From a virus (taxonomy: Duplodnaviria > Heunggongvirae > Uroviricota > Caudoviricetes), in the IMG/VR virus record IMGVR_UViG_2537561716_000030: a DNA stretch of 17,093 nt. The stretch is one strand, 5' to 3'. The position numbers are program-made. This document shows positions 9,001 to 15,000 of the stretch, piece by piece (positions within the stretch are counted from its first letter, which is position 1; every line of letters starts with the position of its first letter).

Positions 9001-12000
9001 GCAGTTCAGGACGCGGCTTCGCCTTCAGCTCATCCATCACCGCCTGTCGCTTCGCCTGTTCATCCAGTTCATTCAACAGCTGGCTGGCAGCTTCCCGGCG
9101 ATGAGCTGCGGATGCGTCACCCTCTGTTGCCATATCCGCATCAGCATACTGCTCCAGAAGCTGCTCGCGATTCATCCCCTGCATGGATTCACGATGCTGC
9201 GCCACCGGATCAACAGATTCTGGTTGCGGGGCTGCGTCGTCCTGCTGCACGGTTTCAGCATCACGCATGGCTGCTTCTTCTGCGGCCTGACGTCTGCCAC
9301 GATATCCGGCAACCGCACCGGATGGAGCCCCCATCGCAGCACCAAAGGCTGCACCTTCGATCGTTGCGTCAGCCACGCCCTCCCACGGTGACACATCCAT
9401 TCCGGCGGTCTCACGCAATGCCGTGTTTTCCTGATAGCGTGAATAGCCGCCCTGCGCCGCATTAATCGCCCCCTGTTCCGTGGCATTTCTGACAATGCCG
9501 CTTTTAACGGTCTTCGCTGTGCCTCGTGTCACCAGATTAAACAGTTGTGCGTCACCCAGTTTTGCCGCCATGGCATTCACAGCCAGCAATTCAGGATCGG
9601 TTGCCAGCTGCGCGCGCACCTCATCGGCAACACGCTCTTTTGCCAGATCCATTTTCTGGCGATCAGTAAGCTGTGCGTGCTGCGGGTCGGCGTCAATGGA
9701 CAAAAACGTCTGCTGAAATTTCGGTGACTGCGCCAGCTCAGAGTAATCCGCATTAAGAACAGCATCTGCTGCCGCCATTGCACTCTGCCCCTGTGCACTG
9801 GCTGTGGAATGGGTGATCAGGCCCGCCTGGAATAAATCCGGCATTTTTTTATCGACAGCTTCTGCTGCCAGTGCCGTGGCTCTTTCCGGCTGCATCCCTG
9901 CCGCGATGTATTTTTTCTCCAGCCCGGCGGTCAGCATTTTTCGCAGTGTGACATCACCCACCTTTTTAGCCACACCGCCAGCAACCATATCAGGTACAAG
10001 CGCACCAATCAGGTTTACACCCTTCGCCACCCAGACCGCAGAATCATCATAGCCTTCGGTCATCGGCGTATTCAGCGCACGAACTGCACCCGGCGACATC
10101 TTACCGGTCAGCCATTCATCAGTGGCTTTAGCACCATCACTGACAGCCTTACCGGTTGCCTTCAGACCTTTACCGACAGTATCAGTAACCGCGTTTTTGC
10201 CATCAGGCAGGGTATCGATGACCTCATCAGCCCCCCTGCTGCCACCGGCAAAAATATCCTGCACAGTTGCGACACCCGGCAGCCCCATACGGCTGAACTC
10301 ATTTAAAATACGCGCCCCTGTTTTTACCGGGCTCTGAATCATCGCATCACCGAGTCCACGGGCCATTTCCCCTGTTCCCCGGACGGACTGGGCGAAACCT
10401 TTACCCATTGTTGGCAATACATCGCCCAGGCTGAACGACGTACTGTTATCCTTCCAGCGATTCGGATCAGAGAAAAATGCTTCATAGCTGTCAGTTTCGC
10501 CGGGTTGCTGAATGTTCAGGCTGTTACGATTCTGGTTACCGAGTTGCGCCTCAGGACGCTGTTCCTCTGAATAGGCCATACAGACTCCATAAAAAAACCG
10601 GCACAATGGCCGGGCATCAGGAAATGGTATTAATGGAATATCGTGAATTACTGGGCGTAATTCTGTTTCAGTCCACGGATAAACTGAGATGCAGATGAAG
10701 CACTTTCATCTCTGGCCTGTTCCCCCCTAGCCTTTTGAATACGGAGAAAATTCGCATACCCGTTCTCCAGCAATTTCTGATTCTGAGGCTCCAGCATTTC
10801 AGGCTGACGGGCCGCTACATTTCTGGCAAATGACAGCTTATCAGGATCATCTCCCGCCCAGTTGATAACCTGTTGCTGAAGTTTTTGTTGCTGAATTTTC
10901 TGTTGATGCGGTTGTGAACCAGTCGCAGCATAATATTCATCCACCGCAGCCTGTGCATTACCGCCATTCTTGATCGCGTCCGCCGCTACGTTGCTGGCCC
11001 CCTTCTGAAGCTCTTTCAGAGAAAGTCCCTGCTGCTTCGGCATAAAATAACCATAATTTTTCGATATCTCTGCAAATTTGCTGCGATCCCTGACCTGAGC
11101 GATAGCCTTATCAACGGGTATCGCCAGCACGGTTTGATCATCAGGGTGCGCACTGCCGTATTCTGTTACAGGTTTATGCGCGGTGGAGCCATCGCTGTAT
11201 GTGAGATCAAGGCCAATAAGTACGTACCCTTCCTGCTGCGCCGGTACGATACTGCCAATCCTGGCCTCTTTTATCGTTTTTTCCCCGGTTGAATCAGGCA
11301 TGCCAATACGCTGTTGTAGTTCCGGGGCAAACACGCCGGAAAGCACATCGAGATTTTCCGGGGTATTCAGCGAATCGATCGCCATGTCCGGCTTATCACC
11401 AAAGATTTTTTGCAGGTTGATCACGGCCTGACCCGCTTTCGCTGCATAGCCTTCGTTTGACATAAGAATTAATGGATGTCCCTTTGGCAGCTGCCCGAAC
11501 AGACGCGTTGCAGCCTCCTGATCGCCAGCCTCAATTGCTTTTCCAAGCGCTTCCATTAGTGGCTGGCTATGGGCAATCATATCGTTATACTCAAGCCGTC
11601 GCTGGTTGTATTTTTCCAGTTGCAGTCTCTGCTGAGATAGCCCAAGTGACGCATTTCGATAATTCTGCGCTGCTTTGTGTTCCCTCTCTTTCAGCGCATA
11701 TTCACGGTCAGCATTCCTGACATTAAGATCATATGTACGCTGATCATTCTCTTTTCGGTGCTCAAACTGCGACTGCGCAAATTCAAAATCGCGCTCGTTA
11801 TTTTTCTGTTGCTGAGCAAGCTGTGCTTCTCGCAAACCAAGCTCCTTACGACGGGTCATTGCCTGGTCAACGGTGCTGAATCCGGCAAGTAACCCCTGTG
11901 CAAATCCGCTCATTCACCACTCCTTAAAACAAAGCGCCTGCAATGCCGCCAATCACAGCACCAGCAGCTATCCCGACGGGACCAGCCCATGCTCCGAGCG

Positions 12001-15000
12001 TGGCCCCCATTGCAGCGCTGGAGCCTGCCACAGATGCACCCACAGCAGCCCCCGTACCAATGCCCGTGGCGATATTCTGTTTTTTCTGAGCTTTCTGCTG
12101 CGCCGCCATCATCTTGTTTGACGCCTCAATTTCTTCACGTCGTCTGTCTGCCTCGCTTATTCCCTGTAATGCCTCACGCCGCGACTGATTTGCAATATCC
12201 AGTAAACCGTATCCCATATTTCCTCCTTACGCTGCCACCAGTTGTCCGCCAACACTCAGTTTCTGTCTTGCCGGTGCAGAAGCCCCCGTCAGAATATTCA
12301 TCTGGCGATCCTGTTCGGCTTCACGGATACCATTTTTCGCGCCAGCAATTGCCAGGGCATTACGTAACCCCAGCGTATTACTGTCGGGATTATCCGGGCG
12401 GCTTACCCCGTATCTCGCCATCTGGTTATCCTGCGCCATCTGCGCTGTACGGAGACTGGAAGTGGCAAGGCCGCCCACCCGGGCAAGCTGTGCATTCATC
12501 AGGCTGTTGTTCTCGCCAAGGTCAGCCAGCCTTGCTACACGGGGTAAATATCTGGTGCGCCAGTCGTCGTATTGCTGGCGGGTCAGCGCTGCGGATGTCT
12601 GCCAGTCCCCCTGAGGGCGGGCTGCTCCGGTATAACCGTATCTCGCAAGTGTTTCGTATTTACCGTACTCCATAATCACAGTCTCCAGTTCTGAGCCTGA
12701 TACTGAATGGCATTAGCGCCGGTGCCAGGTGTTTTAGCACCGCCACTTCCTCCGCTACCACCAGCCTTATGCATCGCATATGCACCTACCGCACCCAAAC
12801 CAGCGCCAACAAGAGAGGCTCGCCCCTGCTGTTTCGTAAACGCAGCCTGTGCGTCCGATTTAGCTTTTGCCAGACTGCTGTCTGCCAGCGAGTTAAAACT
12901 CTGTAACGCATCCGCCTTCTGACCTGAACCGAGAGCTGCAACATCCTGTAGCCCGGCAACATACTTATCTGCCTGCGATACCTGCCCCCGTGTGGTTGTG
13001 TCAATCTGCCCGGTTACCTGATCACTCTGGTTCGCATTCATTACCGCGTTAAAGCGACCACTGGACGGGTCAACACCGGACTGAGCAAGATTACCCGCCA
13101 GCTCCTTCCGTGCTTCGCCAAACTGTTTCTGATACCCCAGATTTGTGGTGCCAGCAATATTGTCGTACTGCTGCTCACTGTTCAGGTCATCGACCTTTTC
13201 CATGAAGTTATCTTCAGCCGGGCGGAGGATATTTTTGTAATCCTGCCACCCTTTCCAGGCCACTTCTTCCTGTGCTATTTGCGCTGCTGTTGGTTTTACT
13301 TTGGTATCACCACCACCTTTACTTCCACCCATAATGGCCCCCTGGATAATAAAAAAACCCTGCCGGAGCAGGGTCAGAATGTGAATTGCAATGTTGGTTT
13401 AAACACGATGATGAAAACTGTGGCAGTCAGACCGCTATCCTGAACACCATGAAGCCATCCTCATCATCCGGCATTCGCTCAAAGCCCAGACGTTTTCCCA
13501 GCCGGATAAATCCCCGCCTTGCCGTATGAAATTCAGCCCAACGTCCGCCAGCCAGACGGGTTAATGTCTTCACCTCCGGCAGATAACGCTCAACACTGTT
13601 ACTCCCCGTACACACGCCCAGCAACACCAGAACATAAGGGATACCATCAGCACTGAGCACAGAACGCAGCACCAGAAAGCCATCAGGTGCCTCAAAACAA
13701 AACGCCTGCTTTTTAAGGCAGGCGTCTTTAACTTCATTCATAAATTCAGGGTTGCGGGAATTTCTCACCACACGCTGCATATACCGGAGAATTTTATCGT
13801 TCATTCTCTCACCTGAAACGGGTGCCATATCGGCTGAACCTCAGCAACCAGTTGACGGGGACTTTCGTCCCCGCCGCGGTTTTCCTACTGCTTACACTGT
13901 AAGAACGCCGCAAACTCCGCTCCCCACAAATTCAGCCGGAACTCACACAACGAGCCGTGTAACATCCAGATGGTGAAGATAACCGTCATACAAATTGTGA
14001 CGGTGATAAGCGATTTTTGCGACATAGCGCTTGCCTCCTGAGTGGAGAGGCGCTAACCTTCTACTTGTCAAGGTACGAAGTGTTAGGGCCTCGGGTTAAC
14101 GTTAAGTTGACTCGGGGCCTTTCCACATCAGGCCTTCAGGTTCACCCTCCAGCCATCAGCCGAAAGGCACCCACGCATAATTTACGGTTTTTGCCCTGTA
14201 CGGGCAATAAAAAACCCGCCATCACAGCGGGTAGTAAACGGTTACCGGATACAGGTTAGAATTTCAGGCCAATGCCAGCAGTAATTCCACTCGTGCGCCA
14301 GTCGCCAGAGCCGGAACCTTCGTAAGCCACATCCAGTGTAACACTCTCATTCAGGTTAAACTGTGCACCTGCAGCCCACGCAAGGGAGTTTTTTTTCGTG
14401 CTGTTGCTTTCAGAAAATCCGCCACTACTGTTAATATTGTCCTTAATTTTCAGGTCAGCGCTAACTTTAGCAACGCCCATCCCTGCCATCGCATATAAGC
14501 TCATGTACTGATTAACCCGCCATGAAGGCCCCGCTAACAGACTCCAGTAATTCGCCCTGATATCCGTTCTGGCAGAAGCTGCCGGATTCTTAATCTTCCT
14601 GGTATGATCGGCTGACTGCACATCAATAAATGTCTGTGAGTTAGTGAGAGAACGCGTCCATGTAAAAGAGGTGATAACGCCAAAATCATCCGTTATCTCG
14701 TAGCGATACCTGATATTAATGCCCTGTGGATTTTTATCCTTGCCTTCATATCCACTGACCCGACCATCTGTATATTCGCCCAATGAAGAAAAGTAGTTTC
14801 TGTTGACGAAATGACTGAAAGTCTCCCTGTTATGAGCAGTCGCATCCTTTACAAAATCCTTCAGTCCCGGAAACTGAAAGTGCGCATACCCCAGAGAAAT
14901 TGTATGGTTTCCTTCTGCTGCATGTGCAGATAAATTTACACAGGCAATCCCGGAGATTGCACACACAACCAGTGTTGCTATACTCTTCATTTAAGATATC

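Follow-up and report, generated by a model that had tools for sequence, protein, structure and literature searches.

Small glycine-zipper proteins encoded beside a giant polyvalent protein in Stx-converting podoviruses as probable internal virion proteins

What do the small proteins do that a Shiga toxin (Stx)-converting podovirus encodes just ahead of a giant polyvalent protein? The question is raised by a viral DNA of 17,093 nucleotides (nt) (IMG/VR record IMGVR_UViG_2537561716_000030), called the window here at its full length, which represents the right end of an Stx-converting, short-tailed prophage (Sepvirinae). Its late genes include a block of five that encode, in order of transcription, proteins of 218, 148, 97, 421 and 2800 amino acids (aa); the four genes from 13332 down to 10648 are separated by gaps of 10 nt or less, or overlap (Table 1). 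In phage records these five genes are 'hypothetical', except for the giant one ('LPD5 domain-containing protein') and an 83-aa form of the third ('bacteriocin'). A first-pass annotation of the window, made from the sequence alone, described glycine-zipper-like hydrophobic tails on the 97-aa and 218-aa proteins and offered several readings of them, among others that they form a conduit that takes the giant protein or DNA across the envelope. Of those readings, the conduit fits best with what is presented below: the genes form a cassette in a virion module, homologues of their products occur in virions of phage phi24B, and the tail of the small protein matches that of P22 gp7. The 218-, 148- and 97-aa proteins are probably internal virion proteins (ejection or pilot proteins, of the gp7/gp14 class) of a podovirus of the 933W/phi24B type, and the small proteins are, judging from their sequences, most likely distant and partly split relatives of P22 gp7.

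The 97-aa protein is sharply divided in two. All 16 of its D, E, K and R residues lie within residues 1-46 and none within residues 47-97 (hypergeometric P 1.3e-6), and an uncharged run of 51 residues arises with a frequency of 5e-5 among shuffles of the whole protein. Seven GxxxG motifs are found in the tail, where shuffles of the tail itself lead one to expect 2.9 (P 0.004), together with 22 small-xxx-small spacings against an expected 17.2 (P 0.007). The earlier description of this protein as half charged helix and half hydrophobic tail with small-xxx-small spacing is thus borne out. Moreover, G56, G82, G86 and G90 are invariant over 36 diverse homologues, which makes this a true GxxxGxxxG zipper, and the family shares an N-terminal M(G/S)YGL(L/I)D, a polar helix and a terminal GGP.GA.IGA..GL.AGSLF. 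By its predicted hydropathy the tail is marginally, not strongly, hydrophobic: the Kyte-Doolittle mean over 19 residues peaks at 1.76 (residues 79-97), the classical cut-off for a transmembrane (TM) helix with this window length being 1.6. In the GenBank record of phage P27, two TM domains are noted by both Phobius and TMHMM in an identical protein.

The small protein also varies in a characteristic manner. Of the 5,426 complete E. coli genomes, 327 have the small gene, and 40 of these 327 have the long (97-aa) allele; a word-indexed search for the small protein returned only E. coli-type relatives, among which 83 aa is the common form. In RefSeq the 83-aa allele goes under the name 'bacteriocin', and the 97-aa allele is a 'hypothetical protein'. 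Both DNA and protein alignments place the 14 additional codons of the long allele between the two zipper segments. Across the family this linker may be absent or may run to more than 110 residues of G/A/T repeats, and the insertion in the window is a small instance of that variation. The most expanded linkers, for instance in Serratia (L058:11077-11574), in a Halioglobus metagenome-assembled genome (L095:11100-11756) and at three further loci (L060, L061 and L077), give small proteins of 123-218 aa with G/A/T runs that include (GAAT)n, while both protein ends stay conserved.

It is the conserved C-terminal end that points to a known podovirus protein. The terminal motif GP(V/W/I)GA.IGA..GL.AGSLF is common to the small family and to P22 gp7 (Pfam PF25688, 'DNA transfer protein'; equivalents are Sf6 gp11 and the gp7 of CUS-3 and HK620), whose sequence ends in ...TPWGAAIGGGIGLLGSLF. 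In both, the tail consists of two glycine-rich segments and an invariant GxxxGxxxG, formed by G82, G86 and G90 in the 97-aa protein and by G215, G219 and G223 in gp7, the latter ending GSLF (C-terminal end ...GGGASGAIAGAGLAKLIGSSTPWGAAIGGGIGLLGSLF). When the two families were compared with hhalign, the small family (36 sequences) matched gp7 over the whole 44-column tail with a probability of 96.3% (E 1.8e-9); with 6 small-protein sequences only, the match to the gp7 profile was 66%. The score of 58.5 lies far above those of reversed profiles (19-23) and of 40 column-shuffled gp7 tails (15.4 +/- 1.4, maximum 21.2), and composition alone therefore does not explain the match. In line with this, a hidden Markov model (HMM) of the small family places real gp7 5.3 standard deviations above 1,000 shuffles of its tail. 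Matches to the Pfam P22_gp7 model occur in 13 of the 36 members (best E 2.8e-6), and one divergent homologue has a weak precomputed match to the same model. The best relative is the small protein of the metagenome contig L004, with 25.0 bits on positions 179-229 of the model only; the other recorded score is 18.1 bits.

The 218-aa protein resembles gp7 in other respects. Like gp7, which has 229 aa, it is small, and gp7 is likewise a helical, Q/A/G-rich internal protein of a podovirus virion; the 218 family aligns, weakly but collinearly, with the GG-rich N-terminus of mature gp7 and with what follows it. An AlphaFold2 (AF2) model of the 218-aa protein is all-helical (pLDDT 82), with long helices such as known ejection proteins have. 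An exhaustive HMMER search found 382 clusters of the family at 50% identity, and among the 150 listed almost all are of 180-260 aa. Most family members also match PHROG 8003, a 'virion structural protein' class.

Its hydrophobic segment has, however, to be distinguished from the tail of the small protein. A G/A-rich segment of some 9-22 residues is found at about positions 165-190 in most of 108 homologues (21-54% identity), and G180 is kept in at least 90% of them. Thus the segment described in the first-pass annotation is present, with a length of 16 residues, and its position is conserved, but it does not end the protein, since 31 residues follow it: HKA, GGSGGSGG and then 20 more. The GGSGGSGG run is present as described, after the segment and HKA; it is nevertheless absent from the homologues, in which the region beyond the hydrophobic segment varies in length (0-53 residues) and sequence. 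The 19-residue hydropathy of the segment is 0.94, under the TM cut-off, and the stretch is not significant in the single sequence (P 0.05); neither its length nor its hydropathy would suffice for a classical TM helix. By hydropathy, the tail of the 97-aa protein just passes as a TM helix and the segment of the 218-aa protein does not; the likeness of the two had been overstated, as the two-segment zipper is found in the 97-aa protein only.

Between these two genes lies that of the 148-aa protein (148/150 aa), which fell within the interval of the first-pass annotation, went undiscussed there and is of the same protein family. The hhalign comparison of the 148 and 218 families gives a probability of 97.7% (E 2.1e-12), with residues 25-126 aligned on 19-126 and a score of 71.7 against 22.9 for the reversed control, so that the 148-aa protein and the N-terminal two thirds of the 218-aa protein can be regarded as paralogues. 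The small family, in turn, aligns with the 218 family through its helix and first zipper segment, on positions 130-185 in the C-terminal third (probability 88.7%, E 2.6e-6; reversed controls score 16-17). The simplest reading would be that the 218-aa protein is a complete gp7-like protein in which only the first G-rich segment is retained, and that the 148- and 97-aa proteins are a second gp7-like copy, split into one gene for the N-domain and one for the helix plus zipper. A natural fusion with the full gp7-type terminal zipper was looked for in the 218 family and is found in none of its 108 members. The stop of the 148-type gene runs into the start of the small gene at 28 of 45 loci, with 1 or 4 nt in common, which points to coupled synthesis. 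In the window itself (12217-12229) the two open reading frames (ORFs) are in frame and are parted by TAA and three codons, GGA GGA AAT, which also serve as the ribosome-binding site. Stop-codon readthrough that would fuse the two proteins was considered and is rejected because the in-frame arrangement is seen in only 5 of the 45 loci, most of which have the 1- or 4-nt overlap.

The arrangement of the five genes is conserved well beyond the Stx phages. The block is kept, in the same order, at more than 45 loci, and its general form is a protein of about 210 aa, one of 120-240 aa, a glycine-zipper protein of 76-218 aa, one of 381-566 aa and one of more than 2000 aa. In a survey of prophages that scanned one genome per bacterial species, 44 loci were found, of which 2 end at the match; at all 42 that can be assessed, the small glycine-zipper gene is the third gene, and nearly all continue with a gene for 381-523 aa and then with one for more than 2,000 aa. 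A homologue or positional equivalent of the 421-aa protein, of 381-566 aa, occupies its slot at nearly all loci. The hosts include Citrobacter, Pectobacterium, Serratia, Brenneria, Yersinia, Aeromonas, Vibrio, Photobacterium, Halomonas, Chromohalobacter, Pseudomonas and others, and the cassette loci span Enterobacterales, Aeromonas, Vibrionaceae, Halomonadaceae, Pseudomonas and further groups, in at least seven gammaproteobacterial orders. Searches by tblastn with the 218-aa protein extend to Vibrio phages. Phage douglas 12A4, for instance, has a nozzle-like gene and a tail fibre followed by genes for 217, 128, 78, 566 and 3026 aa, while phage D80 has genes for 131, 201, 117 and 77 aa, then an HNH endonuclease gene on the opposite strand, and then a gene for 467 aa and the giant gene. 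The 78-aa and 77-aa proteins of these phages are clear homologues of the small protein, as is that of contig L004. Scans of viral contigs with divergent members of the 218 family found nothing. In the window, the genes belong to the structural module of the Stx podophage and come after the central tail fibre and before the LPD5 polyvalent protein; the PHROGs of the cassette proteins and of a 133-aa protein encoded just upstream (611, 596, 594, 601 and 610) are all classes of unknown function.

Evidence from virions comes from a 2026 preprint on phi24B, which combines cryo-electron microscopy (cryo-EM) with virion proteomics (bioRxiv 10.64898/2026.04.10.717836). Copy numbers per virion were estimated there at 19-35 for gp47 (2811 aa, 'internal protein'), 30-56 for gp48 (421 aa), 36-73 for gp50 (148 aa) and 22-41 for gp51, which is 97.7% identical to the 218-aa protein of the window. 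The cryo-EM map shows none of the four, which is what one expects of disordered internal proteins. The authors proposed gp47 as an ejection protein and gave no role to gp48, gp50 and gp51; gp49, the homologue of the 97-aa protein, was detected with 6 counts in batch digestion and 13 overall, including the peptide EALQGISDADR (bioRxiv 10.64898/2026.04.10.717836). Packaging in the virion is supported for the 218-aa homologue and weakly for the small protein. A second Stx-phage mass-spectrometry paper (PMC12502783) gives no data on the cassette proteins, and they go unmentioned in a paper on expression in phi24B lysogens.

A role for such proteins is suggested by P22, where gp7, gp20 and gp16 (about 12, 30 and 12 copies) exit the virion ahead of the DNA and all are needed for DNA delivery. 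An in situ study of P22 reports a trans-envelope channel of about 50 nm, into which processed gp7, gp20 and gp16 assemble one after another with the tail hub as template. By analogy, the three small proteins of the window would be synthesized late from a tightly packed and probably translationally coupled block, and packaged into the head with the 421-aa and 2800-aa proteins. After adsorption, once the tail needle is lost, they might leave through the portal and tail channel before the DNA and build, at the tail tip, the proximal section of a trans-envelope conduit, probably in the outer membrane. The 421-aa and giant proteins would lengthen this conduit, and both the genome and the giant protein, whole or in parts, would travel through it; the 421-aa protein is a candidate, by position and size only, for a component of the periplasmic tunnel. 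As for the 2800-aa protein, it would be a giant virion-packaged cargo or ejection protein; for gp47 the phi24B authors proposed the role of an ejection protein, and polyvalent proteins have been predicted to be injected along with DNA (PMC5512222). The two-segment GxxxGxxxG tail of the small protein may form a helical hairpin that inserts as an oligomer into the host membrane, the same proposal as has been made for the equivalent tail of P22 gp7. Its marginal hydrophobicity would keep the small protein soluble in the capsid, with insertion only after ejection. For the short G/A helix of the 218-aa protein, tight helix-helix packing within an oligomer seems more likely than spanning of a membrane.

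Other podoviruses provide parallels of a looser kind. The proteins of the T7 gp14 class (T7 gp14, N4 gp52 and DEV gp73) have 150-240 aa and are elongated and helical, like the cassette proteins; they have hydrophobic helices and yet are packaged soluble, and they are proposed to be ejected first, into the outer membrane, where they start the DNA ejectosome. They have been described as helical proteins of about 200 aa that insert into the outer membrane (PMC8954989). The closest functional parallel is N4, in which small channel-formers are encoded beside an ejected protein of 3500 aa: this protein is ejected through channels of the small membrane-active gp52 (150 aa) and gp51, which form channels in bilayers (PMC13434306). 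The gene order in N4 is, however, opposite to that of the window, and the T7 class has 2-5 predicted TM helices and no glycine zipper. Sequence searches of the Protein Data Bank (PDB) and Foldseek found no similarity in sequence or fold between the 218-aa protein and any solved member of the class. The layout of the cassette and the all-helical model of the 218-aa protein would fit the gp14/gp52 class as an analogy of architecture only.

Several observations set the cassette apart from P22 or weigh against the assignment to internal virion proteins of gp7 type. In the first place, the cassette departs from P22 in organization: the gene for gp7 adjoins the tail-needle genes and is followed by those of larger ejection proteins, a likeness in itself, but here the gp7-like features are spread over three genes, encoding the 218-aa protein (which lacks the terminal zipper), the 148-aa protein (N-domain only) and the 97-aa protein (helix and zipper only). 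Unlike gp7, the cassette proteins have no cleaved N-terminal leader, and their partners of 421 and 2800 aa show no similarity to gp20 and gp16, the ejected partner being a giant polyvalent protein. Neither profile comparison nor pairwise BLASTP detects similarity between the 421 family and P22 gp20, and a kinship of the 133-aa protein with the P22 assembly factor gp14, suggested by a 'YLPE' resemblance, was rejected when the comparison of family profiles came out empty. Thus, homology of the whole cassette to P22 genes 14-7-20-16 was also rejected; the cassette as a whole is not demonstrably homologous to P22.

The sequence matches themselves also have their weak points. The link between the 218 and gp7 families is weak (probability 23%, P 9e-4, score 29.3), although the reversed controls score 13.6-13.8 (P about 0.3) and a greedy-mode alignment is collinear, residues 4-195 lying on 27-220. 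Pfam P22_gp7 is not matched by the 218-aa protein of the window at E up to 0.1, nor by its 108 family members at E up to 0.01, and these members have no match to any other Pfam family either. The 97-aa protein of the window matches no Pfam family at E <0.1, and P22_gp7 not at E up to 10; no small-family member with a recorded score reaches the gathering threshold of that model, 28 bits. Pairwise BLASTP against P22 is without a significant result for 218-aa protein and gp7, 97-aa protein and gp7, 133-aa protein and gp14, or 421-aa protein and gp20. Glycine-rich, low-complexity profiles are able to inflate profile-profile scores, though the controls described above argue otherwise. A rough sum on the Hessa scale is positive for every candidate TM segment (best +3.9 kcal/mol), and spontaneous insertion of the monomer is therefore not predicted. 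A Foldseek search of the PDB with the model of the 218-aa protein returned only generic long-helix matches (E 0.3 or worse), and a fold search of BFVD yielded the Vibrio-phage homologue of the protein and, beyond that, weak helix matches. PDB sequence searches found no relatives of the 218-aa protein or its family profile, of P22 gp7 or of the 421-aa protein, the AF2 model of which is poor (pLDDT 62, pTM 0.32; shallow alignment); gp7 itself has no deposited chain in the PDB. Finally, the detection of gp49 in virions consists of very few spectra, and its discoverers filed it as 'most probably contamination' (bioRxiv 10.64898/2026.04.10.717836).

The glycine zipper, for its part, is shared with other families, namely the Pfam models Gly-zipper YMGG (PF13441), Omp (PF13488), OmpA (PF13436) and Rick_17kDa_Anti (PF05433). 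What these share with the small protein is an uncharged hairpin, some 40 residues long, with (G/A/S)xxxGxxxG periodicity, and 27 of the 36 small-family members match Gly-zipper_YMGG at E <=0.01. The scores of the relatives scored individually are at most 27.8 bits, under the gathering threshold of 28.9, and that of the window's copy is 6.7-7.6. The families concerned are mostly lipoprotein or outer-membrane anchors of bacteria with signal peptides, whereas the small protein has a conserved charged helix and no signal peptide.

The main rival to the preferred assignment, although a doubtful one, is that the small proteins are internal head proteins that act in packaging, as scaffolds or adaptors which recruit, organize or condense the 2800-aa protein, their zippers serving to pack protein against protein. 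Since GxxxG motifs also drive the packing of soluble helices, the zipper itself would be in keeping with such a role, as would the shortness of the segment in the 218-aa protein, which could hardly be a TM helix. The genes are strictly linked to a giant polyvalent protein at every locus examined, and gp48, gp50 and gp51 are about as numerous in the virion as gp47, or more so. A model for such a role exists in the Dar system of P1 (Hdf, DarA, DdrA, DdrB and DarB), where small head-internal proteins are likewise encoded and packaged together with a giant injected multidomain protein; in it, Hdf, DarA and DdrA do for DarB what the small proteins would do here for the giant protein. The literature on Bcep22-like phages regards the giant protein as an antirestriction factor that is packaged as DarB is (PMC9144972). 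The packaging explanation is compatible with most of the genomic evidence. It leaves unexplained, however, why the tail of the small protein should match that of gp7, a protein required for DNA delivery, and why P22, which has no giant cargo, should have the same tail; moreover, a charge-free run of 37-51 residues with an aromatic end is typical of a membrane hairpin. Sequence similarity to the Dar proteins was not seen, no comparison aimed at it having been made. The Dar accessory proteins have no reported glycine-zipper tails, and P1, a myovirus, needs no ejected channel. The packaging and ejection roles are compatible with each other.

A second explanation, which we consider unlikely, concerns the 97-aa protein alone: it might be a late protein of the inner membrane of the infected cell, perhaps an assembly anchor or a factor in superinfection exclusion or lysis timing, with only the 218-, 148- and 421-aa proteins packaged and its trace in virions due to contamination with membrane. 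The two TM helices noted in the P27 record would be as expected, and the counts for gp49 are very low, with the host outer-membrane proteins Lom and Bor at an equal raw level. Nevertheless, the small protein has 4 observable tryptic peptides only, and its zipper is one K/R-free peptide of 37-51 residues, so that under-detection is to be expected. When normalized for length and to the portal, the signal of gp49 corresponds to about 6 copies, above that of the adaptor gp62 (2.1), a true tail protein present in 12 copies, and that of Lom (2.1). The verdict of the phi24B authors was reached because the protein is annotated 'bacteriocin', not because of the data. In addition, the cassette never lacks the small gene, which overlaps the stop of an upstream virion gene at most loci, as described above, and the tail of its product matches that of a known packaged and ejected protein. 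Thin as they are, the data suit a virion protein of low to moderate copy number at least as well as a contaminant. The assignment to internal virion proteins would account for four 'hypothetical' proteins of the phi24B virion and argue that a fifth was wrongly set aside.

It is highly improbable that the 97-aa protein acts as a holin, as a toxin akin to bacteriocins or microcins, or as one partner in a toxin/immunity pair: glycine-rich peptides of this type can permeabilize membranes, and the name 'bacteriocin' of the 83-aa allele stands in RefSeq and PHROG-derived annotation, but the gene has a fixed place in the virion modules of phages from many genera and the supporting matches are sub-threshold and confined to the glycine-rich tail. 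Bacteriocin_IIc is matched by 8 of the 36 small-family members at E 3e-4 or weaker, with 15-21 bits where scored against a threshold of 27.1, and MccV at E 0.24 or worse. With class IIb/IIc bacteriocins and microcin V (PF10439, PF17508) the family has in common only a Gly/Ala-rich hydrophobic segment of similar composition, and the generic Gly-zipper and P22_gp7 models score equally well or better. A double-glycine leader is lacking, the N-terminus is a conserved charged helix of 46 residues, and neither a C39-peptidase exporter nor an immunity gene is found nearby in the window; the class II microcin suggested by the first-pass annotation is not supported. Nor is its holin-like reading, as no holin family is among the Pfam and PHROG matches, the C-terminus is uncharged, and no endolysin or spanin gene is near, the neighbours being the tail fibre, lom, hok and polyvalent protein genes. 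The same holds for the proposed toxin/immunity pair: there is no significant PADLOC match, and the pair is kept in Vibrio phages isolated as free virions. PADLOC gives for the 97-aa protein weak matches to LeoBC (E 7e-5, 20 bits, profile positions 423-497 of 601), which takes in a large part of helix and zipper and probably reflects composition, and to Csx1 (E 0.006, 13.6 bits), and nothing for the other four proteins; Pfam, NCBIfam and PADLOC scans of the window proteins under study gave nothing above threshold. As for the 'small toxic polypeptide' or 'MokW-like host killing' protein of phage records, this is not the 97-aa protein but a separate hok-like ORF at 13885-14025. On the preferred assignment to internal virion proteins, the name 'bacteriocin', carried by most of the 327 E. 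coli genomes with the gene and by many Stx phage records, would be compositional.

A more specific form of the preferred assignment can be put forward tentatively. The 218-, 148- and 97-aa proteins might together form a hetero-oligomeric translocon of the outer membrane or periplasm for the protein of about 2,800 residues and the genome, in which the small subunit inserts and its variable linker is a spacer or tether that evolves with the host envelope. If so, it would be a widespread, undescribed type of ejectosome in Gammaproteobacteria and provide a genetic handle on how giant proteins exit the capsid. As phages of the 933W/phi24B type spread Shiga toxin genes, the cassette proteins would be concrete candidates for their entry channel, and lessons from one system should transfer to others because the cassette occurs in so many gammaproteobacterial orders. 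The correspondence of the 218-aa protein with the 148- and 97-aa proteins together would amount to a natural domain dissection of a gp7-like protein, which could guide mutagenesis and structural work on P22 gp7. No new principle is involved; the known theme of the podovirus ejectosome is extended.

Table 1. Positions of the cassette genes, their sequence elements and the neighbouring features in the window
Feature	Position	Strand	Remarks
mlaA	1-756	minus	host chromosome
FNT gene	1050-1982	plus	formate/nitrite-transporter family; host chromosome
2800-aa polyvalent protein	2204..10606	minus	Pfam domains LPD5, LPD1, MuF-C, LPD38; closes the cassette; start codon uncertain
Terminator-like hairpin	10598-10613	minus	at start of giant gene; overlaps the TTG start listed for the 2800-aa ORF
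421-aa protein	10648..11913	minus	PHROG 601; fourth cassette gene
97-aa protein	11924..12217	minus	PHROG 594 (E 2e-38); charged helix and two-segment glycine zipper
Uncharged glycine-zipper tail of 97-aa protein	11927..12079	minus	residues 47-97, ending GxxxGxxxG...GALF
42-nt (14-codon) insertion	11988..12029	minus	between zipper segments; this allele (97 aa vs common 83 aa)
148/150-aa protein	12227..12679	minus	between 218-aa and 97-aa genes
218-aa protein	12676..13332	minus	PHROG 611 (E 2e-119), PHROG 8003 'virion structural protein' (E 3e-8); first cassette gene
GGSGGSGG run of 218-aa protein	12739..12762	minus	residues 191-198; non-conserved flexible linker
G/A-rich hydrophobic segment of 218-aa protein	12772..12819	minus	ASLVGAGLGAVGAYAM, residues 172-187 (16 residues)
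Terminator-like hairpin	13356..13375	minus	between 133-aa and 218-aa genes; consensus scan only
133-aa protein	13427..13828	minus	PHROG 610; conserved, just upstream of the cassette
46-aa Hok/Gef-family ORF	13885-14025	minus	PF01848 (E 4e-8); between lom and 133-aa gene
Terminator-like hairpin	14214-14232	minus	after lom
Lom	14256-14990	minus	
205-aa 'membrane associated protein'	15081-15698	minus	PHROG 425, classed as moron
Central tail fibre	15997 to beyond window end	minus	

The surroundings of the cassette are those of a Stx phage. Bases 10600-13900 are 100% identical to the Stx podophages PA28, P27, Stx2a_F723 and vB_EcoP_phi345 and 96% identical to phi24B and P13374, and the 186 phage records that match this region are without exception of Stx type. 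On the minus strand, the late genes follow one another in the order central tail fibre, 92-aa protein, 205-aa protein, Lom, hok-like ORF, 133-aa protein and then the five cassette genes. The left 2 kb of the window are host DNA; the cassette is therefore the last element before the right end of the prophage, which lies near 2000-2200, just beyond the stop of the giant gene. Related records disagree on where this gene starts, with 2811 aa in phi24B and a longer coding sequence in P27. An Rfam scan of the window gave zero matches, neither to a Sok-type nor to any other RNA, and no tRNA gene was detected anywhere in it.

Upstream of the cassette, the homologue of the 205-aa protein in phi24B, gp54, is low in virions, with 7 counts in batch digestion and 94 in total, and is listed there among candidate structural proteins (bioRxiv 10.64898/2026.04.10.717836). 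A homologue of the 133-aa protein is not listed in the virion proteome tables of phi24B; homologues are present in contig L004 and in Vibrio phage D80. In L004 (6383-6980), a toxin-antitoxin-like pair on the opposite strand (Pfam Gp49 and dnstrm_HI1420) lies between the central fibre and the 133-aa homologue. The slot that holds lom and hok in the window and this pair in L004 appears to be a hot spot for moron insertion.

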